A DNA stretch of 64,000 nucleotides from Planctomycetota bacterium (GCA_015075515.1 JABTUE010000001.1:1013001-1077000); one strand, 5' to 3'. Positions 14,842-42,734 are shown, counted from the first letter of the stretch. Notes: generated by a model not told the origin, from the letters alone. Numbers and translations are program-made.

Positions 14842-14844
14842 CCG

Positions 14845-20445: not shown

Positions 20446-20472
20446 TGCCGCCGGGCAACCTACAATCCGGCC

Positions 20473-22430: not shown

Positions 22431-22507
22431 GCACCCGTAGCTCAATTGGATAGAGCATCTGACTACGGATCAGAAGGTTGCACGTTCGACTCGTGCCGGG
22501 TGTACCA
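22431..22507 (+). tRNA. tRNA-Arg (anticodon ACG)
   Basis: 77 nt with a cloverleaf: acceptor GCACCCG/CGGGTGT, D-stem GCTC/GAGC, anticodon stem TCTGA/TCAGA with loop CTACGGA, T-stem GCACG/CGTGC with loop TTCGACT, 3' ACCA. A terminator hairpin follows at 22513-22547. Confidence 0.85.
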
Positions 22508-22557
22508 GCCAAAAAGCCGCCTTGGAAGCTACTTCCAAGGCGGCTGACGTTTCTGGC
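22463..22557. repeat. attL-like direct repeat: tRNA-Arg 3' half from the anticodon loop plus about 50 bp downstream including the tRNA terminator hairpin; an imperfect extension continues to about 22630
   Basis: A near-identical copy (few mismatches) lies at 42547-42641. The downstream approximately 70 bp are also similar and contain GGACAAGGTT motifs. Confidence 0.75.
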
Positions 22558-22740
22558 AGTGATTGCCAGTTAGGCAAGAGGGACAAGGTTGGGGACAAGG
22601 TCTGCGGTATTCCGGCGACGGCTGCCTGCGGCACGCGCCTTTCCGGCAGCACAGGCAGTCTGAAGCCTGCTCAGAATTCAACCAATGCAGTGCAGACAGC
22701 AGCTTCGGGCAGAAAACCGGGCCAAAACGCGTCTTTGGTG

Positions 22741-25700
22741 TTATCGACCAACAAGCGCCATCCAACAGACCAAGTGAATGTGCTCTTCGTGCAGCACATC
22801 CAGTGGTTTGGGGCGCTCATAGGGCTGCAAGCCAAGCTCCTCGACTACTTCGGCTAGTCGTTTGGCGGCTTCTTGCGGGCTCTCCTCGTGTGACCGTATT
22901 GCTTCCTGAATAGGGCGTTGAATCTTGTGGCCGTGAGGTGCCTGCAAGCGCGCCACGAGGCTTGCCGTGTACTCGGGCGTCCAGTCGGGGGCGGCATGGC
23001 TGCGGACAATGTCGGCCGCTCTCTGCATGGACGGCGGAATTTTTGGTTGAAGGTTTGCGGGGTCGGTCAACTCATTCCACTTTGCCAGAATGTGCTGCCG
23101 AGCTATGCGCCAAGCCTCGTAGGCCTGCTGCCGTAGCGCCTCAGTCAGCGTCGTGGGGGCGTCCTCCGGGCAGCGGATGCGACGCAGGCTGGTCAACACG
23201 CGGTCATCTACCAGCGTTCCGTCAGCGGTGACGAAACGGAACAAAGGTTCCTTGCCCACGCGCGCGCAAAAGAAGAAACCAGAGGGACCCTTGGTCGCCA
23301 GGGCCGAGCCTGCGGTCCAAGGGAAGTCAAGAATCGCAGTCTTGTGCCGCGGGTTCTCCAGCGCCTTGCGGAGTTCCTGCCGGAACTCTTCGCCGCTCTC
23401 CGGCGCTTCCCGCTCTCCGCCCAGTTCAAGCAGCGAAGCGTCGCCCTTCTTGATGCGCTCTAGTTCGTCCTTCACGCCGAGCACCACGTCGCCGGTCTCG
23501 GTTCCGGGCAAAATCTCGGCCTCGACACCGACCGTTCGTGCGGCCACCTTCACCTTGTCCTGGATGCGGTCGTGCAGCCTGAGCAACCGGTCCAGTTCAT
23601 CGTCCGGCAGGAAACAGTAGATGTAGTTGTCTTTGTGCTTGCTGCCAATGCGGTCAATTCGCCCATGGCGCTGTACCAAGCGCATCGGGTTCCAAGGCAG
23701 GTCGTAGTTGATCAAATTCCGGCACTGCTGAAGGTTCATGCCCTCTGCCAGAACGTCCGTCGTAACCAGAATGTCGAACCGGTCATCGCGTTTGTCTGCC
23801 GGTGCGTCCATGGACTCAGGTGCGAAACCGAACACTGCCTCCGTACCTTCGGCACTTGACACCTTGGCGACACGCCCCCGGAAGTGCTTGAGCCTTGCGT
23901 TGGTCGCAAGCTCATTCTCCAGAAAGTCAAAGATCCAGTTCATCGTGTCCGCGAAGTAGGTGAAGATCAGAACCTTGCGGTTGTCGCGCTGCGCTTCCGG
24001 AGTGGTGCCGTCCTTGTCCGCGTGTGCGGCTATCTGCTCCAACGCCTTGACCAATGATTTGAGTTTGGGATCCTGTTCAGCCGTCACTTTCTCTACGCGC
24101 TTGTGGAAGTTGCGCAGAATGGCCAAGTCACACTCTACGGCTTCGCGAAGATCGTTGACCTTGTAGGCGCTGGAGTTCTCCAGATCGCCCTCCCGTTCAA
24201 GCTCGTCCATCGCCTCTTCCGCCTCGTCCGTGTCCGCGGAAGGCAGCTCCAGAACCGCTTCCAGGGCCTTCGTTGTCGCCACCTTGCCTTTGCCAAGCAA
24301 CTGCAGAAATGTCTCGTGGTGGCGGATCATCCTCTGCACGGTCTTGCGAAAAGCCTCGATCGACGATTCAAACCGTTTGAGCATTCCAGAGCGGACCAGA
24401 CCCACCAGAACCACCTCGCTCTGCTCGATGTCGCCGTCTTTGCGAAACGCCGATGGCTGATAGCGCGCCAGGCGCAACTCGGGCTCGCCTTCTTCGGGCA
24501 TCACCCGCCGCTCAAACTCGGCAAAGAAGCCGGGCAGGAGCGCGTCCAGCCTGTAGCCCAGTTTGTCTACATGCGGCTTGGGAAACTCGATCTGGATCTC
24601 GCTGCCGTCGGGCAAGCGGATGCGGTCGTGTGGGTAGTACTTCTTCACGAAGTGCCGCGTGCGGCGCACCACCACGCGGTCCAGCAGTTCGAACAACAGG
24701 TCGGGTGTCAGGTCGTCCGGGTCCGTGCGCGAGGCCTGCTTGAACAGATCGCGCATGCTGCGGATGCCGGCCTCGGCAAAAGCCGCATCCTGCTTGATGA
24801 AGAATTCCAGCAGGTAGTACAGGTCCCACACCGAGTTGTTGACCGGCGTGGCCGTCAGCATCACCAGCCGTTTGGGCGGGTCGCCGCGCAGCAGCTTGCG
24901 CAAGGCCTTGCTGCGGTCGGCGTCGGGGTTGCGCACGCCGTGAGCTTCGTCCACTACCACCATGGCGTAGTCTGAGGCATCTACGTCGCGCTTGCCCTGT
25001 GCAATCTCTTCGAAACTGCGCACTTCCACCCGCAGGTCGGTGCGCGCCATGAAGCGCGCCCATGAGCCGTCGCGCAAAGCCGCCGGCGCCACCAGCAGCA
25101 CGCGCTGATGCGACTGGCGGGCATCCTCGATCAGCTTGGCGGCGATGAACGACTTGCCCAGGCCCACGCTGTCGGCGATCAGCACGCCGCCGCGCTGCGC
25201 CAGAATCTTCCGGGCGCGCTCAACGCCGTCGTTCTGGAAGTTGGTCAGGTGGATGCGCGACAGGCCGCCGTGTTCTTCGTTGAGTTGCTCACCGTAGCGC
25301 TCATACAACGCGCGCATGTACACCAGCCAGGGCGAAACCGGCGCGAAACGATCTTCGTACAAGCGCGCCAGGTCAAAGTCTTCAGAGCGCTCCCACAGGT
25401 TGTCGAACCACTGGCGCGCCTTGTTGTAGGGCTCCGTGTCCTTGCGCGAGACGTTGAGTTCAAGGTTCTTGCGCAGGCCGGCGTAGGTGAAGTTGCTGGA
25501 GCCGACGAAGACGCCTTCGCCGTCGGACAAGATAAACGCCTTGGCGTGCAGAAACGGCGGGAACTTGAAGCGGCGCACGCGCAGATTGCCACCGCGTTGC
25601 AGATCTATCAGGCGCTTGACGACGCCCTCGGCCTGGGCATCGAACTCGGTCAGGTTGCGGTCCAGCCGCAAACCCTCTTCCTGCCGCTCCAGTTGCGCCG

Positions 25701-25980
25701 CAAGCTGCTTTTCGAGGGCTTTTTCGCCCTTGGGGCCGCCCAGCTTGACCGGCAACGTGCGGCCTTCAAAGGGCGGCTCGGCACCCAGCAGCAGCCGGAT
25801 GCCGGACAAACGCTCAAGCTCTTCCACCAGCAGCGAAAAGCCGCCCAGGTTGAAGTACCCCGTTGCCACGTCCAGCGACGGCGGCGTCTTGAGCTTGGCC
25901 ACGCTGCCCTGAATGGCGGCCTTGAGCGCCTCCTCCATCGTGCCGTTGTCGAGATTGTCCGCGATGTCCCGCAGCGTCAT
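22741..25980 (-). CDS. Phospholipase-D (HKD) nuclease domain fused to an SNF2-family helicase
   Basis: 1079 aa. The N-terminal HKD motif is FLHAKAFILSDGEGVFVGSSNFTYAGL. The SNF2 core has Walker A LIADSVGLGKS, DEAH box VVVDEAHGVRN, and helicase-C LVTTDVLAEGMNLQQ...QRHGRIDRIG. Confidence 0.85.
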   Translation of the reverse strand: MTLRDIADNLDNGTMEEALKAAIQGSVAKLKTPPSLDVATGYFNLGGFSLLVEELERLSGIRLLLGAEPPFEGRTLPVKLGGPKGEKALEKQLAAQLERQEEGLRLDRNLTEFDAQAEGVVKRLIDLQRGGNLRVRRFKFPPFLHAKAFILSDGEGVFVGSSNFTYAGLRKNLELNVSRKDTEPYNKARQWFDNLWERSEDFDLARLYEDRFAPVSPWLVYMRALYERYGEQLNEEHGGLSRIHLTNFQNDGVERARKILAQRGGVLIADSVGLGKSFIAAKLIEDARQSHQRVLLVAPAALRDGSWARFMARTDLRVEVRSFEEIAQGKRDVDASDYAMVVVDEAHGVRNPDADRSKALRKLLRGDPPKRLVMLTATPVNNSVWDLYYLLEFFIKQDAAFAEAGIRSMRDLFKQASRTDPDDLTPDLLFELLDRVVVRRTRHFVKKYYPHDRIRLPDGSEIQIEFPKPHVDKLGYRLDALLPGFFAEFERRVMPEEGEPELRLARYQPSAFRKDGDIEQSEVVLVGLVRSGMLKRFESSIEAFRKTVQRMIRHHETFLQLLGKGKVATTKALEAVLELPSADTDEAEEAMDELEREGDLENSSAYKVNDLREAVECDLAILRNFHKRVEKVTAEQDPKLKSLVKALEQIAAHADKDGTTPEAQRDNRKVLIFTYFADTMNWIFDFLENELATNARLKHFRGRVAKVSSAEGTEAVFGFAPESMDAPADKRDDRFDILVTTDVLAEGMNLQQCRNLINYDLPWNPMRLVQRHGRIDRIGSKHKDNYIYCFLPDDELDRLLRLHDRIQDKVKVAARTVGVEAEILPGTETGDVVLGVKDELERIKKGDASLLELGGEREAPESGEEFRQELRKALENPRHKTAILDFPWTAGSALATKGPSGFFFCARVGKEPLFRFVTADGTLVDDRVLTSLRRIRCPEDAPTTLTEALRQQAYEAWRIARQHILAKWNELTDPANLQPKIPPSMQRAADIVRSHAAPDWTPEYTASLVARLQAPHGHKIQRPIQEAIRSHEESPQEAAKRLAEVVEELGLQPYERPKPLDVLHEEHIHLVCWMALVGR

Positions 25981-26239
25981 TTACGTTCCCCTTTGACCCA
26001 GGGCCGGATGAACTGGCCTTGATGTCATTTATAGCGACCAGCGCGACATTGAATACCTTGACGCCGTTCCAGGATTGCCTTGGCGGTTTCACCAAAGTTT
26101 TGCTCATCCTGTTTCCGACACTTCGGGATGGAGGTTACGGGCAAAGATTCAACCACTGTCTGGCCCTCGTTGTGCTCCATCGGCCAATCGTGTATGTCGG
26201 CCTCAACTGCTACCATGGAACGAGGCAAAGGAGCATGCG

Positions 26240-27223
26240 GTGGCGCGCTCAGACCTGATTGTGAAACTTGTTCGTGCCGGGGTGGCACGCGATGATGAGC
26301 GCTTTCGAAGGGCGGTTGAGGCCCTGATCGTCGAGGAAGAAGCCCGGCAACACCACACGGTGGCAAAGCAGTTGGCCGAAGCCCTTTCGACGCAAGGCCC
26401 CTCCGTTGCGCAGCTCACCGCTCCCAAGCTTCCGTCAACGGGTCTGGTGTTTGAGCGAGCGCCCCGGCGAACGCTGTCGGAGCTTGTGCTGCCCAAGACT
26501 ACCCGTCAGGCCGTTCAAGAACTCGTGGAAGAGCAGCACCGGGGCGACTTGCTGCGAAACCATGGCCTTGAGCCCCGCCATCGGCTGGTGCTGGTTGGTC
26601 CGCCGGGGAACGGCAAGACGACGCTGGCTGAGGCCATCGCAGATGCACTGCTTGTGCCGCTGCTGATGGTCCGTTACGACGCCATCATCAGCAGCTTCCT
26701 TGGCGAAACCGCCGTTCGCCTGCGCCAGTTGTTCGATCAAGTGCGCACTCGCCCGTGTGTTCTGTTCTTTGACGAGTTCGACGCGCTGGGCAAAGAGCGC
26801 GGCGACGAACACGAAACCGGCGAGATTAAGCGCGTGGTCAACACCCTCCTGATGCAGATTGACGACCTGCCAAGCCATGTTGTCGTCGTCGCCGCGACCA
26901 ATCACCCTGAACTTCTGGACCGTGCCGCTTGGCGTCGCTTTCAGCTTCGCCTGGAGCTTCCGTCGCCGACACAGGCGCAACTTGCGCACTGGTTTCAGAC
27001 GCTTTCGGACCGTCTGGGCCAGCCGCTGGGGCTGGCACCGAGGACACTTGCCGCTAAACTTCCCGGCATAAGTTTCGCAGAAGCGGAAGAGTTTGCGCAG
27101 GATGTTCGCCGCCGCCAGGTGCTTGGCATCCCCGATGCCGATCTCAAGCGGATTGTGAACGATCGGCTGGCAATCTGGACAGCACGCTACATCCAGCGCT
27201 CGAAGTCCAGCACGCGGCGATAA
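26240..27223 (+). CDS. AAA+ ATPase (IetA-like)
   Basis: GTG start at 26240 sits 6 nt after AAGGAG (26228-26233). Walker A is GPPGNGKTTLAEA, Walker B is CVLFFDEFDALG, with sensor-1/arginine-finger context VAATNHPELLDRAAWRRF. The longer ORF from 26075 lacks an in-frame ATG. Confidence 0.75.
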   Translation: MARSDLIVKLVRAGVARDDERFRRAVEALIVEEEARQHHTVAKQLAEALSTQGPSVAQLTAPKLPSTGLVFERAPRRTLSELVLPKTTRQAVQELVEEQHRGDLLRNHGLEPRHRLVLVGPPGNGKTTLAEAIADALLVPLLMVRYDAIISSFLGETAVRLRQLFDQVRTRPCVLFFDEFDALGKERGDEHETGEIKRVVNTLLMQIDDLPSHVVVVAATNHPELLDRAAWRRFQLRLELPSPTQAQLAHWFQTLSDRLGQPLGLAPRTLAAKLPGISFAEAEEFAQDVRRRQVLGIPDADLKRIVNDRLAIWTARYIQRSKSSTRR

Positions 27224-27254
27224 ACAATGGCGCTAACACTGCTGTGGAGTTTCC

Positions 27255-29900
27255 ATGCCGGACGAGCGGCGTCCAGTCCTGCTGTTCCCAAGCGCTTCAA
27301 CCGTAGAGCGCAGGAAGGGAAGCGGTGGTCCATCCAGCTTTCGGTTTCCATCCAGACAACGCCAGCAGGAGCGTTTGTCTGCGACCATGGCGGCCCTGGA
27401 GCGGTCGCTGGAACAGCGAAGCATGCTCCTGTCCGATCATGCCTTGGGCGGCGAGCCCGAAGGTGTGCTGGTGCTGGAGATCGCCGGCAACCTCGACAAG
27501 TTTCATATCGCGGCCAAGGCCGCAGGCATCGAGTGGCTGGGCGAATACGACGAAACAGCCGTAGAGCCGGATGAAGATTTTGCAGTCCAACGTCAACGAC
27601 GAACCCGGCAAACCGATGGCGGATCCATTGGCGACGAAGACGAGCCTGAGGATTCCGGGAATCTCGTCCCGCGCCACGTTTATCTGACCGCCACCAACCA
27701 GCGACGACTGAGGCAGTTTCTTGCCATGTGGGAGCGCTGGCTGCGCAACCAGGACTTTGAGCGAGGCCAGAAGAAGTGGTCGCAGCTCTTCAAGCAGTTG
27801 CGCACGGTCCGGTTCTGGGATGCCGAAGACCGTTTCCGCGCCACAGGCATGCTGGAGGTCTGGCAACGGGCCGTGGATGAGGACCGCGAGCCCGAGCCCT
27901 TTGCCGTGGAACTCTGGTTCCGCGAAGACGAGGCCCAGCGCGACGCAGCCGAGCAGAAGGTTCGCGCTTTCGTCACGGCGTCCGAGGGACAGGTCATCGG
28001 CCGTCCAACGGTGATCCCTGAGATCGCCTATCACGCCCTGATCGTCAGTCTTCCGAAGCAACGAGTTGAAGCCCTGTTGCGCGACCAGGCATCTGTGGTC
28101 TTGGCCAAGTGCGACCAGGTCATGCTGATCCGTCCCACGGGCCAAGTTGTGGGAGGGCCAACGTCAGGGCCGCCGCTTCAGGGTATTCAGAAGCCTGCAT
28201 CCGAGAGCGTCCGGCAGGCAGTCCGACCCAACCCCGATTTGCCGCCGGAGATTGCCATCCTTGACGGCCTGCCGATGGGCAATCACGAGGCGCTCGACGG
28301 CCGCCTGGATATCGATGATCCTGACAACTGGGGCGCAGAGTATCCCGTTCAAGCGCGGACACACGGCACCATGGTTGCCTCGAACGTTATTCACGGAGAC
28401 CTGGGAGCAGCCGGTGCGCCGCTAACCCGCCGCATCTACATCCGCCCGATCATGCGGCCTCGGCCTGGCGGCAGCGACGAGTTCATTCCGCCCGACCTAA
28501 ACGAGATTGACCTTGTGCACGGCGCGGTCACCCGCGCCAAGCAGCGGCACCCCTCGCTCAAGGTCTTTCTGCTTGCGGTCTGCGACCCGGTGCAGGTGTT
28601 TTCCGGCAGGATCAGTCCTTGGGCACGGCTCATCGACTACCTTTCCCACAAACACAACATTCTGTTTGTCATCAGCAGCGGCAACCACACCGGCGCCCTG
28701 CACTATGATGTCGGCACGCAACAGCTTCATGATATGCCGCCCGATCAGCGCGATTTGCTGACCATGACCCATGTGCTTGATGGCGCCATTACGCGCGGCG
28801 TCATGGCGCCCGCCGATTCCATCAACGCCCTCACCGTCGGCGCGGCCAACAACGATTTATCGGATCTGGACAACACGCCGTCCGGCACACTGCTGCCGGT
28901 GACGAACAGAAGCCTCCCTGCACCATACTCCGCGCTGGGCCCCGGTTACCGGCGCGCCGTCAAGCCGGATTTTCTGACCAACGGCGGCCGCAAGCCCTAT
29001 CGGCCAATGCTCCGGAGCTCAACGCAAACGCGGCTTGAGGTGCCGGATAACCTGTCCATCTTCCCGGGCATTGTCACGGCGATTCCGCACCAATCCTTCC
29101 GCTATCGCTTCGAGGCGGGCACGACCTTGGCGGCTGCTCTGACCACACGAAGGCTTGCCCAGGCGCTGGACTATCTGCGCGATCCCCAGTTTGCGGGCCA
29201 GATTCCTGACGAGTTCCTGCCCGTTATCATCAAGGCTTTGGTCGCCCATTCCGCCCGTTGGGATGATGCCGCGCGTCAATCCATTGAAGCCGCTGTGGGC
29301 AACGGCGCAGACTGGCGAGCGCAGAAGGCTGCCGTTACGCGCATGCTGGGCTACGGCTACGTGCCGCCGGAAGGCACTTTCGATTGCGCGCAACATCGCG
29401 CCACGTGCATCGGGCTCGGAACCCTCAAAGTGGACCAAGGGCACGAGTTCCAACTTCCGCTCCCGCCCATACCCGCTGACCCAATGCAACAAATTTGGCG
29501 CAGGTTGACCGTGACCATGGCCTACCTCAGCCCCATCAAGCCGAGGGTTCAGGCATATCGGCAAGTGGTCTGCTGGGCGGATCGCGCCGTGCCGGACGAC
29601 GTAGGTTTCGACTTTAATTCAACGTCAGACGTCGAGGTGCGGGCCGCCCAGCGGGGGACGTTGCAGCATCTGGTCTTCGAGGGCAACTCCGCGCCGGTGC
29701 TTACGGACGGTGACGCCCTGCAACTGATCGTGTCGTCGCGTCCAGGCGCCTATGACGGTATCAGGGCCGACGGCGAAGTATCGACACGCTATGGCCTTGT
29801 CGTCAGCCTCGAAGTTGCCCAGAACATCAACATTTACGACGAAATCCGCGACCGCATTCGCCCGCGGGTGCAGGTCCGGAACCGTCCCCCGTCTCGGTAA
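27255..29900 (+). CDS. Subtilase (peptidase S8)-like protein with a long N-terminal extension (IetS-like); the predicted nucleophile position reads Thr
   Basis: 881 aa. The Asp block is IAILDGLP, the His block HGTMVASNV, the oxyanion-Asn block FVISSGNHTGA, and the Ser block reads GTTLAAA (GTS to GTT). A GGAG lies 5 nt upstream of the ATG. Confidence 0.7.
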   Translation: MPDERRPVLLFPSASTVERRKGSGGPSSFRFPSRQRQQERLSATMAALERSLEQRSMLLSDHALGGEPEGVLVLEIAGNLDKFHIAAKAAGIEWLGEYDETAVEPDEDFAVQRQRRTRQTDGGSIGDEDEPEDSGNLVPRHVYLTATNQRRLRQFLAMWERWLRNQDFERGQKKWSQLFKQLRTVRFWDAEDRFRATGMLEVWQRAVDEDREPEPFAVELWFREDEAQRDAAEQKVRAFVTASEGQVIGRPTVIPEIAYHALIVSLPKQRVEALLRDQASVVLAKCDQVMLIRPTGQVVGGPTSGPPLQGIQKPASESVRQAVRPNPDLPPEIAILDGLPMGNHEALDGRLDIDDPDNWGAEYPVQARTHGTMVASNVIHGDLGAAGAPLTRRIYIRPIMRPRPGGSDEFIPPDLNEIDLVHGAVTRAKQRHPSLKVFLLAVCDPVQVFSGRISPWARLIDYLSHKHNILFVISSGNHTGALHYDVGTQQLHDMPPDQRDLLTMTHVLDGAITRGVMAPADSINALTVGAANNDLSDLDNTPSGTLLPVTNRSLPAPYSALGPGYRRAVKPDFLTNGGRKPYRPMLRSSTQTRLEVPDNLSIFPGIVTAIPHQSFRYRFEAGTTLAAALTTRRLAQALDYLRDPQFAGQIPDEFLPVIIKALVAHSARWDDAARQSIEAAVGNGADWRAQKAAVTRMLGYGYVPPEGTFDCAQHRATCIGLGTLKVDQGHEFQLPLPPIPADPMQQIWRRLTVTMAYLSPIKPRVQAYRQVVCWADRAVPDDVGFDFNSTSDVEVRAAQRGTLQHLVFEGNSAPVLTDGDALQLIVSSRPGAYDGIRADGEVSTRYGLVVSLEVAQNINIYDEIRDRIRPRVQVRNRPPSR

Positions 29901-29952
29901 GCAGCGGGATCGGCGTCATGCACGCTCATCTTCTCCCGGCGGGCGGGTTGGG

Positions 29953-34255: not shown

Positions 34256-34726
34256 TCAGGCCTTGTGGGACTTCAGGGAGCCTTCGGAGGGGGTCTGGCC
34301 TTTCTTGCCCCAGTAGCCAAGCACCTTGTCCAGCAGGAGCTTCAGGCGTTCGCCCCGGAATGACGCCTTGGCCTTGGCGTCTTTGGGGTGCGGGCGCGGG
34401 TAGATGAACTTGGCGTCCACGACGGTCAGCAAGCCCACGTGCAGGTAGGTCGGATACTTGATGATGTCGGCTTCGCCCAGCTTGATGTATTCGGGCGTGG
34501 GGACTTCCTTGCCGCTGGCGTGCGGGAAGCGCGAAAGCGGGCAGAGTGCCCAGCCGTCGTTGCGTTGCTCAACAACCATCAACAGGTGGCCGGTGTCCTG
34601 ACAGCCCTGCGGAATGTTGCCGTCTTTGCAGAGTTGCTCGCCCGTGCAGTCCATCGTCGCCAGCACGGCGTCGTTGTACGCCTTGTCAGGCTTAACGCGA
34701 ACCACCATGCCCGGCTCAATGGACAT
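34256..34726 (-). CDS. Hypothetical protein (island cargo)
   Basis: 156 aa with non-repetitive composition and several Cys (CTGEQLCKDGNIPQGCQD). No recognised domain. Confidence 0.5.
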   Translation of the reverse strand: MSIEPGMVVRVKPDKAYNDAVLATMDCTGEQLCKDGNIPQGCQDTGHLLMVVEQRNDGWALCPLSRFPHASGKEVPTPEYIKLGEADIIKYPTYLHVGLLTVVDAKFIYPRPHPKDAKAKASFRGERLKLLLDKVLGYWGKKGQTPSEGSLKSHKA

Positions 34727-34734
34727 TCACGTTC

Positions 34735-35361
34735 CTACCGGCCTTTGGACGGATTGGCCGCCAGTTCGTTGATCAGCGTGTTTTCCAGCTTCTCAAGACC
34801 GTCGGCCAGGCGCGCCATCGTGCCGGGCACCGGCTCCGGCGCGCCGTGTTCAAGGCGGCTGCGAAGGTCCGAAATCTTCTTGCGCGCTTCGCCGATGGCC
34901 GGCATGGCGTCGCCAAGGGCTTTCATCATGTCAGCGATCAGCGCATCAAACGACGTGTTCACGACCGTTTGCGTTCCCGACTTGGCGTTCTTGGTGCTGG
35001 CGTGGCCAAGGTCCGTGACTGCCTTCCACAGGCCGGCCCACTCCAGGACGTGCGGTCGGGCAATGTTGGCCATGTAGTCGGCCAAGCGCTGATCTACGAA
35101 CGCAGCATCAGCCTTCATTGCTTCGTGCAGGTTCTTGAAGCCGTATGCCGCCACGCCCCGCATGGTGGCGACCAGCGCCAGCAGGAACCAGCCGAACTCG
35201 TTGAAAGTCAGCGCAACGACGTACTGCCCGACTTCTTCGTCTTTCAGTTCGGGCATGAACAGCTTGGGGAAGGGCTTGGGCTTACCTTGCAAGGCCGCTG
35301 CAAGCTCTGCCTGCGCGTGCTTCTTGGCGGTTGGAACGTCAAAGCCAGCTAGACCGGGCAT
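34735..35361 (-). CDS. Hypothetical protein (island cargo)
   Basis: 208 aa, largely alpha-helical. No recognised domain. Confidence 0.5.
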   Translation of the reverse strand: MPGLAGFDVPTAKKHAQAELAAALQGKPKPFPKLFMPELKDEEVGQYVVALTFNEFGWFLLALVATMRGVAAYGFKNLHEAMKADAAFVDQRLADYMANIARPHVLEWAGLWKAVTDLGHASTKNAKSGTQTVVNTSFDALIADMMKALGDAMPAIGEARKKISDLRSRLEHGAPEPVPGTMARLADGLEKLENTLINELAANPSKGR

Positions 35362-35584
35362 TGGCCCCTCCGGCAGGGCGAATTGCTATATCCTGCACAA
35401 GCAACGCGCGCAAGGTTCAGCGGCGCGGGGTAAGTATCGGCAACCTGCGGGCCGAACTTTACACTTTTGATGTTTCGCCTAGCGGTCACTCAGAAACATC
35501 ATGGCGTCGGCATCGGCTGATTGCCAGCCCCAAGCCCATACCCATCAACAGCCGACGGACACGCTTTGTTCCCCGTGCGCCGGG

Positions 35585-35899: not shown

Positions 35900-36429
35900 A
35901 CTTCCGGGTGTTCGGCTTTCAGGCGTTCCGCAAAGGCGCTTGCGCTTACCGGCCCGCCGTCTGCCAGCGCGCGGGCGAACGCTTGCCCCTGCTCCGGCGT
36001 CAAGGCTTCCGGGTTCAAGCCGCGCACCCTTGCCATGGCTTCCAGCAGGTCTTGCAAGGCGTCCAGAATGGGCGCTTGCTGTTCGGGCGAAAGCGTAGAC
36101 CAGTCAAAGTCCGGCGCGCCCAGGCGCACTTTGCGGCAGTGTTCAATCAGCCGATCACACCACGCGCGGGTTTCAGCGCTGCTTTCGCTCCAACGGCCGC
36201 GCCACAGCTTGTCCAGGCCGTCGCCCCAATCCGCCAGAAAGTCGATGTGCAGCTTCATGCGTTCGACCAACTCGCGCTGGCGGGTGAAGCCGGCCCACAG
36301 ATTTTGCACGTCCACGGCTGGCGCGTGCTTGGCACACCACGCTGCCGCGCGTTGGTCGCCCGCCATGGCGCGGGCCTGCTGGCGGGCGCACAGGTCAAGC
36401 CAATCATCGGGGGCAAGCGTTTGGGTCAT
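35866..36429 (-). CDS. Hypothetical protein (island)
   Basis: Only the C-terminal 187 aa of the 375-aa ORF look protein-like (MTQTLAPDDWLDLCARQQ...). ATGA overlaps the upstream gene at 36426-36429. The N-terminal part of the long ORF is Arg/Pro-rich junk. Confidence 0.45.
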   Translation of the reverse strand: MTQTLAPDDWLDLCARQQARAMAGDQRAAAWCAKHAPAVDVQNLWAGFTRQRELVERMKLHIDFLADWGDGLDKLWRGRWSESSAETRAWCDRLIEHCRKVRLGAPDFDWSTLSPEQQAPILDALQDLLEAMARVRGLNPEALTPEQGQAFARALADGGPVSASAFAERLKAEHPEVCLTAGKEQAG

Positions 36430-36785
36430 GGCGTCCCCTTTCGTGGCCGCAAGTAGCCCAGCGCGCGCAGGTGCTCCAGTCGCGTCCTGCCCGCACTGAA
36501 GGCGTCCAAGTCCAGCGCGTCGCCGTGCCAGCAGCCCTTGCCGGGCAGGCCCACGGGCTTGCCGTCGGCCCCGGTTGCCGCAGCGTGATTGGCCGAAAAG
36601 CAGGCCCAGCGCGTTGGCTTGCCTGGAATGCGCCCGAAACAGCCGCGATGGCCGCACACGGGGCACTGCCCGCCGGCTCGCCCGAAGTCGCGCGCGTGGT
36701 CGCGGTTGTAGGACTCGACGGCGGCGCGAATGTTCGTGGTGTCGTTCAAGCCGGGAATCGGGCCGCGATAGATCGGGAAACTCAT
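36426..36785 (-). CDS. Small zinc-finger protein (island)
   Basis: 119 aa with CPVCGHRGCFGRIPG...WACF. The stop is coupled to the downstream gene. Confidence 0.45.
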   Translation of the reverse strand: MSFPIYRGPIPGLNDTTNIRAAVESYNRDHARDFGRAGGQCPVCGHRGCFGRIPGKPTRWACFSANHAAATGADGKPVGLPGKGCWHGDALDLDAFSAGRTRLEHLRALGYLRPRKGTP

Positions 36786-39640
36786 GCCGTCCCCCTGTAT
36801 GCGCCGGAAAGTGGGGCGGTCGGGGCAGGTGGGGCGGATGGGCCTTGCAAGCGGGTTTCAGGCCGTCTGTCCTGCCCCGCCCTGCCTGCCTGTTGGGGCA
36901 GGTCGTGGGGCGCGCCTTTGTTCCCTGCCCCACTGTCGCCCCAGTCCTGCCCCAGTGATTCATGCATAGTGGGGCAGCGGGAATCCCCTTCATTTAGGCT
37001 TTCGTCGCCATCCTGCCCCACTTGCCCCACTTCCTCACCAAGTAAGAACGACGGCGACAGGCACAACACGCGCGGCCGGCTTCCCGCGATGGAAACCTTG
37101 ACGGTCAGGTGTTTGCCGTCCGTGCGGATCAGCAGGCCCTTTTCACGCAACTGTCGGCGCAGGGTGCTTTCGGAAACGGCCAGCGGCTCGCCCGTGCGGT
37201 TGCACATGCCCTGCACGGCGGCAAACGCGGCTTGCGGCTCCAGGTACAGGATTTCCCCGTCTGTCCAGCCGGCCCGCGCGCCCTTGGCCCGCCAGTGGCC
37301 TTCAATGCGGTCGCCGACGACTTCTTGGCCGCCCAGGTATTCCCAGCCCCACGCCGACGCGCGGGGCGGATTGTCGTTGTTCATGCCGGCGACGTGGGCC
37401 GCGCCGGAGTGGATTGCCGCTTGCAGCAACTCGCGGAAGCGGTCCACGGGATCGGCGCTGGCCAGATGCTCGCCTTGCAGTCGGGCGACTTCCAGCAGCG
37501 CGGCGCGGGCCTTGGCCAGCAACTCGCGCGTCCCGGCGGTGTCAAGCACGCCGCAGTGCTGGCCGAACTCCGCGAACACTTCCAGGGCGGCGTACAAGCC
37601 GGCAACGTGGTCCGGCGTTTGTCCGTGCGTGAACCCGCCCATGCCGCGCCAGGCCGTAGGCGCGCGCAAGATGCGGTCTTGGGCGGCGGTCAGGTTGTTG
37701 CCCGTCGCCAACCAGCGAATGAAGCCGGCCAAAGCGGCGGCGTACAGGCCCGCGTCGCCGTCGTGCTGGCAGCGGGTCAGGGCGGCCAGATTCACGTCGC
37801 CGTCGCCGGCTCCTTCACGCGACGCGGCTTGCAGGTTCAACACCAGCAGGCGCGCGCGGAGGCTCTGGCCGCGCGGCACATCTTCGCCCGTGACCAGCAG
37901 GGTCCCGCGCGGCGGCTTGGCGTCAATCGGCGTGCCATCCTGCCGACAGCGGCCGCGCCCTTGCCCGTTGTTCTGGCCGCGTAAGACTTGATCGGCGCGC
38001 CGGTGATAGGCCGCCACGTCGAATTGGGTGCCGCCGGGCGCGAAGTCGTCAATCACAAGCAGGGCGTCCTTGGCGTGAAAACAAAGCGCGCGCAGGGCGT
38101 TGGGTGTGTGCTCCCAGCTTGCGGGCAGGTTGCCACGGTTCATGGCCGGCCCGAAGAAGCGTTGCACCAGCGCGGCCAGTTCGCTCTTGCGCGTGCCGGT
38201 GCGGCCGTTGAGAAACACCGTCGCGTCGCACTTGCCCAGCACCGCGCGCCACGGCAGGGCGAACAGCGGCAACGCCACGCGGCCAGGCGCGACTTCCAGC
38301 AGGCGCAGGGACGCGGCCACGGCATCGCGCAGGGCGTCGCCTTGGGGCGGATCAGGCAGGCGGTACAGCGCAAGTCCCTGCGGGTCCGTCTCAATGTCGT
38401 CGCGCGCGCCGTCTGCCCCAATGCCGCCGGCGGTGTGCAGGTAAACCCGCTGGCCCGCGACTTGCCGCCAGCCGGTGTGCGTGAACACGACGCGCGTTGG
38501 CGTTTCGCCGGACGTGAGTTGCAGGGCTGCTTGCACGTGCGCCTCCGCGTTGAAACCGGGGAACACCACGGCGTTTGTGCCCAGGTGTTCCACGGCCCAT
38601 TTGCGGACGTTGGCGAGTTGGGCGGCGGGAATCGTGAACGGCGCGGTCCTTCGGCCGGCGTGTTCGGCCTGCACCTCAAGTGTCCGCGCGGGCTGGCCCG
38701 ATCCGTCGTCGCGCGTTACTTGCGCGACAATGCGCGCGGTCCAGTTGGTCAACGTAAGCGGCACGTGGCCGTCGCGTGTCGGCTTCAGCCAGACGAACCC
38801 GCCGGGCGTGACTTGGTAGGCGCAGTCTGCCGGAGCGTCCGTGGCCGCCGGTTCGGTGACGGGAACATCTGGCGCGGCCGCCAGCAGGTCCGCCACGGCG
38901 CAGGGCGTGTCGCGCCACACAAGCACACTCTCGCGGCGCGGGTTGGCTTCGCCGGCGACGGCGCAGTTGGGGGCACGGAACACGCGCGCCAGGTCGTGCG
39001 TCACATCGGCCTTGAAGCCGGCCCGTCGGGCCTCTGCCAGCGGCTCACCCAAGGCCGCCAGGGCGTCAACGCACAGGCGCGCCAACCCTTCGCAGGCGCG
39101 GCGGTACTCGTTGGCGTCGGTCACTGGCGCAAGCAGCGGCGCAATCACGCGCGCCCCGCGCGGCGTCAGGTGGCCCAGCGCGCCGGGCAGCTTGCCGTCG
39201 AGCATGGCCAGAGTCAGAGCGTCGGCGCGGTCGTGCGGCAGGGCGGCGTGTTTGCCGGCGCTGTCGTGCCAGTCCAGGTCGCAGACGGCGCAGGATGCCG
39301 AAAGCCAGTGGTCGCCCTTGCGCCGGTTGTCGCGCCAGCGGTGCGGCGCGAACCAGCTTTCCTTGTCCGGGTCCAGTTCGGACAAGCCGTCAGCAAGGGC
39401 GGCAGGCGTCCATTCGGACAGCGTATGAAAGCCCTTGGCGCTGCGAACCTTCAGGCCGGCACCGAATGAAAAGCCGGTGTCGGGTCCGGCGCTTGTCGCG
39501 CCAGGTGGTGCAATTTCCCCTGAACTCGCGTCACGTCCGATTCCACTTTCGGGGGTCTGGGGGCCGTCGCCGGGTTCGTCGGTTTGTGTCGGGCTGGCGT
39601 TGCCGCGCCGGCCCGACGTGTTTTCGGTCGGTGCGAGCAT
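36782..39640 (-). CDS. Large P-loop protein, putative phage/plasmid primase-helicase (DUF927-like) replication protein
   Basis: 952 aa. A Walker-A-like motif VFLNGRTGTRKSELA and Walker-B-like LLVIDDFAPGG sit in the C-terminal half. Its position between the excisionase-like gene and small phage-like genes suggests a replication role. Confidence 0.55.
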   Translation of the reverse strand: MLAPTENTSGRRGNASPTQTDEPGDGPQTPESGIGRDASSGEIAPPGATSAGPDTGFSFGAGLKVRSAKGFHTLSEWTPAALADGLSELDPDKESWFAPHRWRDNRRKGDHWLSASCAVCDLDWHDSAGKHAALPHDRADALTLAMLDGKLPGALGHLTPRGARVIAPLLAPVTDANEYRRACEGLARLCVDALAALGEPLAEARRAGFKADVTHDLARVFRAPNCAVAGEANPRRESVLVWRDTPCAVADLLAAAPDVPVTEPAATDAPADCAYQVTPGGFVWLKPTRDGHVPLTLTNWTARIVAQVTRDDGSGQPARTLEVQAEHAGRRTAPFTIPAAQLANVRKWAVEHLGTNAVVFPGFNAEAHVQAALQLTSGETPTRVVFTHTGWRQVAGQRVYLHTAGGIGADGARDDIETDPQGLALYRLPDPPQGDALRDAVAASLRLLEVAPGRVALPLFALPWRAVLGKCDATVFLNGRTGTRKSELAALVQRFFGPAMNRGNLPASWEHTPNALRALCFHAKDALLVIDDFAPGGTQFDVAAYHRRADQVLRGQNNGQGRGRCRQDGTPIDAKPPRGTLLVTGEDVPRGQSLRARLLVLNLQAASREGAGDGDVNLAALTRCQHDGDAGLYAAALAGFIRWLATGNNLTAAQDRILRAPTAWRGMGGFTHGQTPDHVAGLYAALEVFAEFGQHCGVLDTAGTRELLAKARAALLEVARLQGEHLASADPVDRFRELLQAAIHSGAAHVAGMNNDNPPRASAWGWEYLGGQEVVGDRIEGHWRAKGARAGWTDGEILYLEPQAAFAAVQGMCNRTGEPLAVSESTLRRQLREKGLLIRTDGKHLTVKVSIAGSRPRVLCLSPSFLLGEEVGQVGQDGDESLNEGDSRCPTMHESLGQDWGDSGAGNKGAPHDLPQQAGRAGQDRRPETRLQGPSAPPAPTAPLSGAYRGTA

Positions 39641-39643
39641 GGC

Positions 39644-39865
39644 TCAAACCCCCTTCATTTCGAGTTGTTCGATCCACGCCAGCAGCGTGGCCCGGCGCAC
39701 GAAGATTTTGGATTTCTTCGCGCCGCGTCCGGGCCGCACAACGGCCAGTTCGCCGGCGTACACCGCACGGCGGATCGTGTCGCGGCTGACGCCGACGATT
39801 TGGGCGGCGTCGTCCAGCGACAACAGCAGGGCTTGCACGGGGGGCGTTTCAAGAGTCTTGCTCAT
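39644..39865 (-). CDS. Excisionase/AlpA-like helix-turn-helix DNA-binding protein
   Basis: The internal ATG at 39865 gives about 73 aa with an HTH (DAAQIVGVSRDTIRRAVYAGELAVVRPG). It lies between the integrase module and the primase-like gene. Confidence 0.6.
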   Translation of the reverse strand: MSKTLETPPVQALLLSLDDAAQIVGVSRDTIRRAVYAGELAVVRPGRGAKKSKIFVRRATLLAWIEQLEMKGV

Positions 39866-40085
39866 GGGTTCCTCCATTGCCGGCGAACGGCCGGCGCGTT
39901 GTCGGACAGCCTCCAGTCGGAGCGACAAGTCGGAAGCTCAACCCCGCGTTTGTCGTCCCAGTGACGGCGTGTCACGCGGAGTGAGGCTTTCTGTAGAATC
40001 GGACCGAAGTTGAATCCGGCCGCCCCAGGAACGTGCAGACCCGCCTTGGAGGCGGGTCTGCAAAACACCGAAGGTTGAAATTCAA

Positions 40086-40943
40086 CTATTCTTCGGCGGC
40101 AACGGCCTCGATTCGCCCTTGGTGATCCTTGGTCCCCCGGAAAACCGTTCCATGAGGGAGCATTGTGAGACCTTCTCGGTAGTACTCAGAGTTGGGAGGC
40201 TTGGACAAAGCGGACTTGCTGAGTCCGACTTGCGCGGCTACGGCTTCCCGGCTGACAGTCAAACCTGCGTCAGAGAGCTTCTTCATTGCCCCCCAAATCT
40301 CCGCTTGCCGATTTCCCCGCCTCTTGGTGCTCTTCGCGGCCAGGACTGCGGCCGCTTGGGTCTCAGCTTGAATCCGTGCGTGGTACTGAATCGCTGCCAG
40401 TGCAGCTGACGGCCAGTCTCTCAACTGCTCAAGCAACAAGTGCAACTTCATGTAGTACTGCTCGGGCGCGCTGTTAAAGCGGGCATTCTCACTGCCCCAG
40501 TGAGCTGTTTGCCATTCGAGGCTGCGAGTAAGTGAATTCCAAGTCGCTCCAATTGCCTTCGCCCACGTGACCCCTTGGTGGCGCGAAGGCCATCCGGGAA
40601 TGGCCGCGGTGTTGAGTCGCTCGCAGAGACTCCCAATCTTCTTGTTCGTCACCCACCACCACGTCTGGTTCTTGGGGTCGGTCACCCCTTGGCCCTTCCA
40701 ATCGGACGTGTAGAACTGGTGTTCGACTTCTGGCCTGTCAAGAATGTCTGGCCGCGCCCATCCAATCATTGACCCGCCCAAGCCGTTTCCACTCAAATGC
40801 GGAGAGGCCTGCGCTCGTATATGTGCCAGTAGCCCATCCGACACAAGGAAGCACCGTCCAATGTGGTACCCGAACATCTGGCGGCAGAAGTCCAAGTCGC
40901 GTTGGATTTCGCCAAGTAGTAGCTGTAAGTCGGTGGTTGTCAT
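40086..40943 (-). CDS. Hypothetical protein, low-GC cargo gene (C-terminal HTH-like segment)
   Basis: 285 aa. Local GC is about 57%, the lowest in the window. It is Trp-rich with LSDAGLTVSREAVAAQVGLSKSAL near the C-terminus. Confidence 0.5.
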   Translation of the reverse strand: MTTTDLQLLLGEIQRDLDFCRQMFGYHIGRCFLVSDGLLAHIRAQASPHLSGNGLGGSMIGWARPDILDRPEVEHQFYTSDWKGQGVTDPKNQTWWWVTNKKIGSLCERLNTAAIPGWPSRHQGVTWAKAIGATWNSLTRSLEWQTAHWGSENARFNSAPEQYYMKLHLLLEQLRDWPSAALAAIQYHARIQAETQAAAVLAAKSTKRRGNRQAEIWGAMKKLSDAGLTVSREAVAAQVGLSKSALSKPPNSEYYREGLTMLPHGTVFRGTKDHQGRIEAVAAEE

Positions 40944-41012
40944 GTGCGTTCCTCCAACGGTTCCAGCCGCACTTGGCCACGATTATAGGACGCCCCGCGA
41001 CATCTTGAGCGG

Positions 41013-42383
41013 TCAGGCGCGGTTCAGCTTCAACAGGCGGCCCGCGCGGCCGGTACGCGCTGAAATCCAGCCTTCCAGGGCGGGCTTGATTCCCAACAGT
41101 TCCTCCACAGTCGCGGCGCTGGCCTGCTTGCGCGGCAGCGCGAAGTGGCCGGCGTAGTGCTTGACCAGAACCGCGTAGTCGTGGCCCAGTTCGCCGGCCA
41201 CGACGTACAGGTTCAGCCCAAGGCCGGAGTTGGCAAGGTACGTCGCGCAGGTTGAGCGGAAGTCCTTGGGCTTCCACTTGAAGTCCGTCGCCCCTTGGAC
41301 GGCCTTGATGGCGGCCTTCAGGCTGCGCCCCACAACGGTTTCCGCGTCGTCGTCGTCATCGTCGTCGGGCAAGACGTGGCGCTTGTCGCCAATCGCCAGG
41401 GGCAGCGCCCCGCCGAAGACGTAAGGCTCGGCCTTGGGGTCGGCCGCGCCCGCCATCGTTTGCAGCATCTTGCGCAGCGCAGGCCGGGAGGTCAGCGGCA
41501 CGACCCGTTGCCGGCGCGTCTTGGCACCGTAGATCAGCAGCCGGTCGCCGTCGAAATCAACCCACGACTCCGGCGCGTCGGGCGCGGACGGCTTCCAGCG
41601 CAGGCGTTCGGCTTCACCGCGACGGCAGCCCGTGACCATCAGAAATGCCAGCAAGGGGAACAACTCGCTGTCAGGGCGCTCTTCGTCGTGCGTCGCGGCT
41701 GCTTCCAGTATCCCCCGCAGGTTGGCGGAAGTCAGGGTAACGGGTTTGACTTCCACGCGACCCACGGACAGTCCCTCGTTGATGGCTTCGGCGTCCAAGC
41801 GCACGCATGACAGCCGCCTGCGCCCGAAGTTCAGCATGGCCTTGAAGTGGCGGGCGATGCCAGCGACGGAATGGGGCGACAGCGCCGCGCCGGTGCGGCT
41901 GTTGGGTTGGTTTCGCACATGCTCAACAAATCCCTCCAGGTCGCCGACGGTCAAGTCGTGTGGCCGGGCCGGCCGGCCGCGCCAGGACTCAAGAAACGGC
42001 CAGCACTGGCGGTAGCCGATCAAGGTCTTGGGCGAGCGGTCCTTGGCGGTCAGGTGCTTGGCGTGTTGCTCTAGCAGTTGCAGCCATGTCGCGTCACGGT
42101 CAACAGGCTTGGCGCCGTCGGCCAGTTGCTGCCGTTCTTTGGCCAGTTCGCGCGACTTGGCGACGGCGAACGGCCGGGCCGCTTCCCGCGACGAAAGAGG
42201 CAGGCCGTCGTGGCCGGCAAGAACCAGTTTGCGGCGTGCTCCCACCCTGCCTTGTGGCGCCGGATCACGCCAGCGCAGCGCGACAACAGTCTGTCCGCCG
42301 CGCCTCTCGGTTGAAATGGTGACGCCGGGGTGCTCGCTTCGCGACCTTTTGCTGTAGCCCTTGCGTGTGCGTTTGCGTGCCAT
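41013..42383 (-). CDS. Tyrosine-type site-specific integrase
   Basis: ATG at 42383; the longer ORF to 42662 would run into the att repeat and is rejected. The C-terminal catalytic region is RSTCATYL...LGHDYAVLVKHYAGH. It has an N-terminal core-binding/SAM-like domain and lies adjacent to attR. Confidence 0.85.
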   Translation of the reverse strand: MARKRTRKGYSKRSRSEHPGVTISTERRGGQTVVALRWRDPAPQGRVGARRKLVLAGHDGLPLSSREAARPFAVAKSRELAKERQQLADGAKPVDRDATWLQLLEQHAKHLTAKDRSPKTLIGYRQCWPFLESWRGRPARPHDLTVGDLEGFVEHVRNQPNSRTGAALSPHSVAGIARHFKAMLNFGRRRLSCVRLDAEAINEGLSVGRVEVKPVTLTSANLRGILEAAATHDEERPDSELFPLLAFLMVTGCRRGEAERLRWKPSAPDAPESWVDFDGDRLLIYGAKTRRQRVVPLTSRPALRKMLQTMAGAADPKAEPYVFGGALPLAIGDKRHVLPDDDDDDDAETVVGRSLKAAIKAVQGATDFKWKPKDFRSTCATYLANSGLGLNLYVVAGELGHDYAVLVKHYAGHFALPRKQASAATVEELLGIKPALEGWISARTGRAGRLLKLNRA

Positions 42384-42409
42384 GCAGTACTCCCGTGGGG
42401 GACAAGAAT

Positions 42410-42439
42410 GGGGACAAGGTTTGGCATAACCTTGTCCCC
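42410..42439. promoter_or_regulatory. Perfect 12-bp inverted repeat GGGGACAAGGTT-N6-AACCTTGTCCCC immediately upstream of the integrase start; the same half-site recurs as direct repeats beside both att copies
   Basis: The repeat is seen directly. Copies of GGGACAAGGTT lie at 22580-22600 (two tandem) and 42664-42683 (two tandem, degenerate). Confidence 0.45.
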
Positions 42440-42546
42440 ATTTGGCCCTATCCGGCACCGGATGGCCATTACAAAACAGGCCCAAATCCGCATAGGGAGC
42501 AACTTTGCGCAACTTGGCACTTTTCGGCACTAAATCCGTGGACCTA

Positions 42547-42641
42547 CTACGGATCAGAAGGTTGCACGTTCGACTCGTGCCGGGTGTACCAGCCACAAAG
42601 CCGCCTTGGGAGCCAATCCCAAGGCGGCTGACGTTTCCGGC
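42547..42641. repeat. attR-like direct repeat (partial tRNA-Arg 3' half plus downstream hairpin); an imperfect extension continues to about 42720
   Basis: It matches 22463-22557 with a few mismatches. There is no tRNA 5' half upstream. Confidence 0.75.
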
Positions 42642-42734
42642 TGGCACCCTGAAAAACCCCAAACGGACAAGGTTACGGACAAGCTCTGCGTTATTCCGGC
42701 GCCGGCTGCCCCGGCGCGTGCTTGCGGGCGGGGG

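Follow-up and report, generated by a model that had tools for sequence, protein, structure and literature searches.

The window analysed here, a stretch of 64,000 nucleotides from a Planctomycetota bacterium (GCA_015075515.1, JABTUE010000001.1:1013001-1077000; positions are counted from its first letter), contains a 20,084-bp integrative genomic island that appears, with a probability of roughly 0.85, to have been inserted site-specifically into the anticodon-loop region of a tRNA-Arg(ACG) gene by a heterobivalent-type tyrosine integrase. The anatomy of the island is that of a tRNA-targeting integrative element, as an initial annotation of the window had proposed: an intact tRNA gene marks one end and a co-oriented 3' fragment of the same gene the other, and an adjacent tyrosine integrase gene is accompanied by an excisionase-like helix-turn-helix (HTH) gene and a replication gene. 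The choice of site and the geometry of the short repeats around it are conserved in the integrase family, the defence cargo is polymorphic, and an element of the same family is present in another species.

Boundaries of the element and the tRNA gene

The only tRNA gene in the window is the tRNA-Arg(ACG) that had been recognized initially, and it is recovered both by ARAGORN and by Rfam (65.7 bits; Table 1). The near-exact repetition of its 3' part and terminator, which had likewise been noted, holds on alignment. A repeat finder and pairwise alignment give a direct repeat of 96 nt with 94% identity (22462-22557 and 42546-42641) and a start-to-start distance of 20,084 bp, the leading 50 nt of which (22462-22511 and 42546-42595) are without mismatch. 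A 24-mer taken from the repeat has two exact matches in the window and none in 100 shuffles. The first base of the repeat corresponds to tRNA position 32, which precedes the anticodon loop by one base, and the repeat extends through the tRNA 3' end, with 42546-42591 corresponding to tRNA positions 32-77 on the same strand (46/46 identical). The 5' part of the tRNA gene (to approximately position 31) is chromosomal while the 3' part is supplied by the element, and the crossover must be confined to the 50-nt identity block.

A hairpin lies just 3' of the tRNA end in both copies (folding free energies of -31 and -38 kcal/mol, z = -5.1 and -6.8), and the stems of the two hairpins differ by compensatory changes. 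The copies of the 96-nt repeat are distinguished by six substitutions, some of which are compensatory in this terminator stem. Beyond the repeat there is a spacer of about 20 nt without similarity, followed by about 60 nt at about 85% identity (22578-22640 versus 42662-42724), and BLAST merges the repeat and the resumed similarity into a single alignment of 165 nt at 83.6%. The additional 70 bp or so of similarity reported in the initial annotation is consequently real (about 85%) but lies outside the crossover region, and it is read below as the remnant of an attachment-site arm of an earlier sister element. The chromosomal genes outside the repeats are a response-regulator/Ser-Thr kinase gene on the left and a formate dehydrogenase operon on the right. 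No third tRNA fragment was found downstream at up to three mismatches, and there is hence no visible sign that the formate dehydrogenase region is bounded as a second island.

Integrase, excisionase-like gene and predicted attP

The genes that had been placed inside the right boundary, namely an integrase, an AlpA/excisionase-like HTH gene and a primase-helicase gene, are confirmed by Pfam, PHROG and fold evidence. In the integrase, R254, K288, R376, H401 and Y410 are invariant in an alignment of 16 homologues. The integrase family is small, numbering 40 relatives in the database; the few with a named source are assigned to Planctomycetes, Planctomycetota or Planctomycetaceae, and the loci that carry a record title are assigned to Planctomycetota. 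No close matches of the family were found in the PDB, in NCBIfam or in viral contigs, and a scan for consensus promoters and terminators around the integrase gene gave nothing. A run of seven Asp residues (residues ~340-346; 41338-41367, a GTC/GTC repeat on the + strand) is located in the loop before the second catalytic Arg. The corresponding run in a relative with 92% identity has six residues, making this a short acidic insert of variable length.

The 73-amino acid (aa) HTH_17 protein also matches PHROG 66, "excisionase and transcriptional regulator" (1.5e-8). The 285-aa gene that separates it from the integrase has the lowest GC content in the island and no match in four family libraries. 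Five integrase relatives with genomic context were compared, namely loci L128 (92% integrase identity), L117 (71%), L094 (68%), L096 (51%) and L098 (43%), and an HTH_17 gene adjoins the integrase gene in L096, L117 and L128 as well. The gap between the two genes holds an unrelated 344-aa gene in L128 (6996-8030) and no gene in L096 and L117; it may be a second small variable slot.

The choice of site is conserved across this family. Every compared relative whose contig reaches this point (all but L117) has, upstream of the integrase start codon, a tRNA-Arg fragment that begins precisely with ACTACGGATCAG. Together with L119, which encodes an identical integrase, the fragment is found in five relatives (L094, L096, L098, L128 and L119). 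In L094, the intact tRNA-Arg gene is located 10 kb away and the repeat is a perfect 67 nt.

Short direct and inverted copies of GGGACAAG flank the core on both sides, on the P arm (between the integrase start codon and the core) and on the P' arm (after the element-borne terminator). With positions counted from the start of the core, the direct copies on the P arm lie at -147 and -135 in the window, -149 and -137 in L094, -148 and -136 in L128, and -137 and -125 in L096, while the inverted copy lies at -115, -117 and -116 in the first three and is absent from L096. The same layout of two direct repeats 12 nt apart plus an inverted copy is seen in L117, the distances of which to the core are not measurable because the contig ends before the core; L098 has a single imperfect copy, GGGACAAT, at -28. 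On the P' arm, the repeats occur at +118/+130 in the window, L081, L094 and L001, and as a variant octamer, GGTACAAG, at +118/+131 in L004. The positions of the arm repeats are thus kept to within 2 nt while the sequence between them diverges, and integrase relatives at 51-92% identity carry GGGACAAG-type repeats at conserved distances. The repeat sequence co-varies within an element, as all three P-arm copies in L128 read CGGACAAG.

By analogy with lambda-type integrases, this conserved geometry suggests that the GGGACAAG repeats are arm-type integrase sites of an attP (the attachment site of the excised circle) of approximately 290 bp. The predicted attP would consist of the P arm with three GGGACAAG copies, a core running from tRNA position 32 to the tRNA 3' end, the element terminator, and the P' arm with two GGGACAAG copies. 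An empty chromosomal site (attB) would read ...GAGCATCTG|ACTACGG...ACCAGCCAC, joining the tRNA 5' half to the right-flank terminator, and an attP or tandem junction would read ...CCGTGGACCT|ACTACGG...ACCAGCCAAAAAGCCGCCTTGGAAGC, joining the P arm to the element terminator.

The course of catalysis, the function of the arm repeats, excision, replication and the route of transfer are inferred from this layout and the gene content. Recombination would swap the tRNA 3' half and terminator for the copies carried by the element, so that the tRNA would stay intact, and the original tRNA 3' half would be moved 20 kb downstream. The HTH_17 protein and the integrase would direct excision, the primase-helicase fusion described below would replicate the excised circle, and the cargo would protect the host from phages.

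Relatives and exchange of cargo

The locus differs between closely related genomes. Contig L081 of the metagenome-assembled genome (MAG) GCA_048499555.1 has no mismatches to the window over 10964-22511 (11.5 kb). Past the tRNA it differs, with another terminator and arm and a 7.1-kb cargo comprising another type IIG enzyme and an HNH/PDC-S02 protein (variant E2; the window element is E1), and its copies of the 156-aa and 208-aa backbone genes have 91% nucleotide identity to the window. L119 is a 97.6% variant of the backbone, and the identical integrase protein is found across at least 10 sequencing runs. Data sets in which the element is present are SRR11593520, SRR28263011-15, SRR24682844, SRR21762700/01, SRR30015101, SRR35488119 and Joint Genome Institute sample 3300045902. 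In L128, from another species, the backbone order is kept and the integrase is 92% identical; the surrounding host genes are unrelated, the T-arm of the tRNA-Arg differs, an unrelated protein stands in for the primase-helicase, and the cargo is different again. A third, unrelated sequence follows the same tRNA in L082, and in four further Planctomycetota species the DNA beyond the kinase-tRNA locus is different in each case. The different cargo at a site with identical flanks, together with the 92% integrase in another species, argues that the region is not old and fixed; that is, the same 20 kb is not shared by all relatives. The 11.5-kb segment adjoining the P' arm serves as a slot for exchangeable cargo.

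Several observations were made on other loci of this kind. L082 (1-560; Joint Genome Institute (JGI) sample 3300045902) and L003 have a near-identical left flank and the same tRNA-Arg. A different terminator and a TGTACCG-type repeat pair replace GGGACAAG in L082, the occupant of which probably belongs to a different element family at the same site; the same JGI sample also holds a junction of formate dehydrogenase, attR and integrase (L099). The L094 island (GCA_030834465.1, 10 kb; 12196-16370) contains DarTG, a Schlafen-like helicase and an IS21 element next to a truncated HsdR-like gene, a case of cargo decay by insertion of an insertion sequence. L098 (7186-11458) has the tRNA-Arg fragment on one side and tRNA-Phe, TsaE and a second, divergent integrase with HTH_17 and Rep_1 genes of its own on the other, so that two different integrative elements lie back to back.

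The right flank

The right flank, which is outside the element and ends 10 nt before the stop codon of the formate dehydrogenase alpha gene (42735), has the complete layout of a P' arm, with terminator, spacer and two repeats (Table 1), and the roughly 40 nt beyond its repeats resemble 22600-22640. The repeat in this flank, CGGACAAG, is the arm-repeat variant of the L128-type sister element. L094 lacks such repeats at the corresponding position of its right flank. Most simply, the extra similarity in the window is read as the leftover P' arm of an earlier, L128-like sister element. Such an element would have occupied the tRNA gene and its body would later have been deleted, leaving 130 bp, after which the present element would have entered the regenerated tRNA. 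This remnant accounts for the extra similarity of about 70 bp beyond the repeat. Just outside attR of L096 (reverse complement, ~11700-11760) there is a terminator, two copies of GTCACCTAGG 12 nt apart and then TCTGCCGG. The P'-arm layout with another repeat suggests a neighbouring or remnant element of different specificity at the same tRNA-Arg.

Elements of this kind might form a Planctomycetota-specific family of self-replicating carriers of defence cassettes, possibly phage satellites, that compete for one tRNA-Arg, replace each other serially and leave arm-site remnants behind. An element would tell itself from its sisters by the arm repeat, in which two bases (GGGGACAAG versus ACGGACAAG) differ in step with the integrase, and the genes in the integrase-excisionase gap and beside the cargo slot could have new defence, anti-defence or helper-hijacking functions. 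This joint reading is speculative and unlikely to hold.

Defence cargo

The load of defence genes proposed initially is supported by PADLOC, which identifies the genes of the 11.5-kb cargo segment as defence genes: an HKD-SNF2 helicase, IetAS and a type IIG restriction-modification enzyme. The HKD-SNF2 protein is a PADLOC "HKD+Snf2" candidate (8.9e-58). IetA and IetS, an AAA+ ATPase and an S8 protease, are adjacent, co-oriented and 31 nt apart, as expected for IetAS, with the length of IetA (327 aa) following gene calls in other assemblies. The PADLOC match of the type IIG enzyme spans residues 36-1347, and Pfam Eco57I and N6_Mtase domains are also found.

The likeness of the cargo proteins to IetAS and type IIG systems is thus based on very strong, full-length PADLOC matches. 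They differ from known IetAS in that the NCBIfam equivalog scores are under the cutoffs (236/510 for IteA and 58/900 for IteS), which suggests that the cargo IetA and IetS are divergent members of their families. DISARM and BREX were considered for the SNF2 and methylase genes and were ruled out by scores and missing partner genes; for DISARM, the DrmD score in NCBIfam is 197 bits versus a cutoff of 610 bits, the similarity to DrmD and DrmMI is partial, and there is no DrmA or DrmB.

The HKD/PLD-SNF2 helicase and the Eco57I-type enzyme bracket IetAS in the window (22741-25980 and 29953-34005), and the same gene pair brackets HD and AAA_13 genes in the distant island of L096 (12737-16138; 21081-end). 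The two HKD/PLD-SNF2 helicases share 31% identity over their full length. The helicase and the Eco57I-type enzyme may be partners of one insertion-tolerant system.

Replication gene and backbone

The 952-aa protein has no direct match in Pfam, PHROG, NCBIfam, PADLOC or PDB sequences and was identified solely through the architectures of homologues and a fold search. Over residues 275-870 the protein shares 45% identity (2e-144) with the DUF927 module of Toprim-, DUF3854- or RepB-type primase proteins. The N-terminal domain has 283 homologues, and when 10 of these were scanned against Pfam a recognizable C-terminal domain was present in 7, being of the replicative-helicase type in 6. The helicase-type modules found in this position are DUF3987, VapE, D5_N/DUF5906, DUF3631 or DUF927. 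The N-terminal domain has the AEP fold and the acidic DxD motif of AEP primase-polymerases, and the fold evidence confirms that the protein is an AEP-primase/DUF927-helicase fusion.

From the right end inward, the backbone order is integrase, 285-aa protein, HTH_17, 952-aa protein, 119-aa protein, 187-aa protein, DUF5681, 208-aa protein and 156-aa protein; all island genes are on the minus strand save IetA and IetS. The 156-aa and 208-aa genes (34256-35361) are conserved with 90-94% aa identity in E2 and 83% nucleotide identity in L128. The encoded proteins have no match in Pfam, PHROG, PADLOC or NCBIfam, and a single-sequence AlphaFold model of the 208-aa protein has a predicted local distance difference test score of 43, which is too low for use. 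The 187-aa and 119-aa proteins have no family matches either, and the DUF5681 protein has six homologues.

Table 1. Features of the island and its borders (positions in the window; ORF, open reading frame; GC3, GC content at third codon positions; arm distances are from the start of the core).
Feature	Position	Strand	Evidence or remark
Intact tRNA-Arg(ACG)	22431-22507	+	ARAGORN; Rfam RF00005
attL identity block, 50 nt	22462-22511	+	Same as 42546-42595; related elements begin identity at same base
Element-borne tRNA terminator hairpin	22512-22557	+	-31.1 kcal/mol, z -5.1
P' arm, two GGGACAAG repeats 12 nt apart, putative arm-type integrase sites	22580-22599	+	+118/+130
HKD/PLD nuclease-SNF2 helicase fusion, 1079 aa	22741-25980	-	Pfam PLDc_2, SNF2-rel_dom, Helicase_C
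IetA AAA+ ATPase, 327 aa	26240-27223	+	PADLOC IetA 5.8e-145; ORF opens 26075
IetS subtilase (S8) protease, 881 aa	27255-29900	+	PADLOC IetS 3.6e-251, full length; Pfam Peptidase_S8
Type IIG restriction-modification enzyme, Eco57I-type methylase, 1350 aa	29953-34005	-	PADLOC REase_MTase_IIG 2.8e-283
Backbone gene, 156 aa	34256-34726	-	Conserved
Backbone gene, 208 aa	34735-35361	-	Conserved
DUF5681 protein, 92 aa	35585-35863	-	Pfam PF18932, 4.2e-10
Backbone gene, 187 aa	35866-36429	-	GC3 frame analysis; gene calls in L119, L089
Backbone gene, 119 aa	36426-36785	-	GC3 frame analysis; gene calls in L119, L089
Replication gene, 952 aa	36782-39640	-	AEP primase-polymerase (residues ~55-255) and DUF927-like P-loop helicase (275-870)
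HTH_17 (AlpA/Xis-type) protein, 73 aa, putative excisionase/regulator	39644-39865	-	Pfam HTH_17 2.6e-11
Gene between integrase and excisionase, 285 aa	40086-40943	-	GC 57.8%, GC3 0.66; own hairpin 3'
Tyrosine integrase, 456 aa	41013-42383	-	Pfam Phage_integrase PF00589; PHROG 1, 1.7e-26
P arm, two direct and one inverted GGGACAAG	42399-42438	+	-147, -135, -115; between integrase start codon and core
attR identity block	42546-42595	+	Includes displaced chromosomal tRNA-Arg 3' fragment 42546-42591
Right flank outside element, terminator hairpin and remnant P' arm	42596-42724	+	CGGACAAG-gtta-CGGACAAG at +118/+130

Mobility and alternative readings

Several findings weigh against a mobile, site-specifically inserted island. 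Metagenome scans and contigs reached via flanking or element proteins yielded neither an empty attB nor an attP junction, and the junction of the tRNA 5' half with E1 seen in the window has no independent confirmation in another contig. In the integrase, K373 replaces the first His of the HxxR motif, and the Walker A motif of the helicase is GRTGTRKS (residues 479-486), with Arg where relatives have Gly (GPTGAGKS and GRSGLGKS in two aligned homologues); a Walker B-like LLVIDDF is intact, and the Gly to Arg change may alter ATPase activity. No conjugation, relaxase or virion genes were found among the island ORFs in Pfam, PADLOC, NCBIfam or PHROGs. The compositional contrast is also weak (about 68% to 64% GC), with 64.0% in the island, 67.9% and 67.5% in the flanks, and 65.5% in the 9 kb to the right of the island. 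The fall from about 70% to about 55-63% given in the initial annotation was overstated, and one gene alone (40086-40943) reaches 57.8%. Finally, both cargo variants are present in one MAG, as discussed below.

With respect to the empty site, the metagenome scans used a 67-nt pattern fitting attL, attR, attB and attP of this species and a gapped pattern specific to the attP or tandem junction, and neither gave a match. Most contigs with the exact flanking proteins end at or near the tRNA or the repeat; these ends are explained by k-mer sharing and are consequently uninformative on site occupancy. In species-level genomes, the orthologous loci share the kinase-tRNA pair alone (70-74% aa identity) and have lost the formate dehydrogenase synteny, making them too distant to serve as empty sites. 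The lack of an empty site or circle junction would be expected if the island were immobilized and decaying, with cargo differences arising by homologous recombination in place. The boundaries of the cargo swap do lie in homologous backbone (22512-22617 and 34100-35435), the right flank shows in-place decay of related elements, and the Walker A and HxxR motifs are off consensus. Set against these points, the backbone ORFs are all intact, the 50-nt core has no mismatch and the arm repeats agree with the family consensus; the integrase protein does not vary among the sequencing runs, and sister elements are found at the tRNA-Arg of other species. Immobilization is regarded as doubtful, and on the preferred reading of a site-specific integrative island the element would be mobile at present.

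The assembly of GCA_048499555.1 raises a further question. Its contig 10 runs from the tRNA into E2, contig 26 corresponds to window 22512-35435, and contig 25 corresponds to window 36406-50088 (E1 into formate dehydrogenase), all being 100% identical to the window wherever they overlap with it. The presence of both cargo variants in one MAG could reflect a mixture of strains or, alternatively, an E2-E1 tandem array that was collapsed during assembly. In a tandem array, E2 would be followed by E1, and the window assembly would have threaded the 50-nt repeat and skipped one element. The three contigs fit this arrangement, and tandem arrays are common at tRNA genes (125 in Islander; PMC4383910). 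A mixture of strains accounts for these contigs too, E1 directly follows the tRNA 5' half in the window, and no junction of P arm, core and P' arm was found in metagenome contigs. A tandem array is considered an improbable source of the window sequence.

Alternatively, the island might be a phage satellite (P4-like or resembling the phage-inducible chromosomal islands, PICIs) that would be excised and replicated on helper infection, packaged in helper capsids, and would defend against competing phages. Satellites are known to carry defence hotspots. The layout of integrase, AlpA-type HTH, primase-helicase and several small genes is satellite-like, no transfer machinery was found, and a DUF5681 protein is included in a Salmonella phage virion proteome (PMC8954984). 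No capsid-remodelling, packaging or terminase-like gene was identified, however, and the small genes have no PHROG match. Neither the integrase family nor the primase-helicase has a relative among IMG/VR viral contigs, an unrelated protein takes the place of the primase-helicase in L128, and there is no known helper. We consider a satellite unlikely. A prophage or integrative conjugative element (ICE) is far less probable still. Both classes commonly use tRNA genes and tyrosine integrases, but the island is small (20 kb), and no capsid, tail, terminase, lysis, relaxase, coupling-protein or type IV secretion genes were found with Pfam, PHROGs and NCBIfam. A prophage was rejected as the PHROGs matches are limited to the integrase and excisionase, and an ICE as no island ORF has a relaxase, coupling-protein or type IV secretion domain.

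Neighbouring genes

A single in-frame TGA (44430-44432), in the context S-C-A-A-T-[TGA]-H-F-P-T, divides the formate dehydrogenase alpha gene to the right of the island (42735-45545, minus strand) into two ORFs and is present in all assemblies (gene calls of 371 aa and 556 aa). We take this position to be the selenocysteine/Cys-His active-site position of formate dehydrogenases, and the TGA is therefore probably a selenocysteine codon rather than the mark of a pseudogene. A hairpin resembling a selenocysteine insertion sequence follows the TGA, without statistical support (z = -0.7). Very long antisense ORFs in the window, such as one of 1177 aa opposite a UvrD-like gene (17275-20808, minus strand), are high-GC shadow ORFs with GC3 below that of the sense-strand gene and are not to be annotated as genes.

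Significance and comparison with known systems

To our knowledge, descriptions of mobile elements and genetic tools are few for Planctomycetota. The island adds an integrative element that is mapped precisely and for which the whole attP is predicted, and the integrase and its attP of about 290 bp could be developed into a site-specific integration vector for hosts with this tRNA-Arg. The exchange of defence cargo on an otherwise identical backbone within one population, together with a datable remnant of the previous occupant, is useful for the study of turnover at integration hotspots and leaves current concepts unchanged.

The integrases of lambda, HP1, P22 and L5 are heterobivalent and have arm-type sites. 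The island resembles lambda-type systems in its long predicted attP, the two arms of which carry short direct and inverted repeats at set distances from the core, and in the small, putative HTH excisionase encoded next to the integrase. It differs from them in that the N-terminal region of the integrase has no detectable sequence similarity and Lys replaces the first His of HxxR.

As for its site, the island fits class A of the tRNA islands, in which attP is centred on the anticodon. This class is very common, with 2083 of the 3919 islands in Islander; 3760 of the 3919 have 3' fragments (PMC4383910). Shared features with class A islands of Islander/TIGER are the intact tRNA gene at one end, the co-oriented 3' fragment at the other, the tyrosine integrase inside, the regeneration of the tRNA by island sequence, and an identity block that begins at the anticodon loop. 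The Planctomycetota host, the integrase family, the copied tRNA terminator and the 130-bp remnant of a previous occupant set it apart from known members of the class.

The replication gene and small genes invite comparison with P4-like satellites and PICIs, which likewise combine an integrase, an AlpA-type regulator, a primase-helicase, small genes and a variable defence hotspot and have no transfer genes of their own. The island differs from these in that no Sid/Psu, capsid-size or packaging-redirection homologues were found, nor any relatives in viral contig collections. P4 alpha is a Toprim primase fused to a D5-type helicase, whereas the island primase is an AEP domain fused to a DUF927-type helicase. 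Finally, the island fits the known pattern of integrative elements that act as reservoirs of defence genes (PMC10201445, PMC11551731). Pipolins have a primer-independent PolB in place of the AEP primase-helicase and an unrelated integrase family; they share with the island the form of an integrative element flanked by direct repeats, in which a module for mobility and self-replication is coupled to an exchangeable defence reservoir (PMC11551731).

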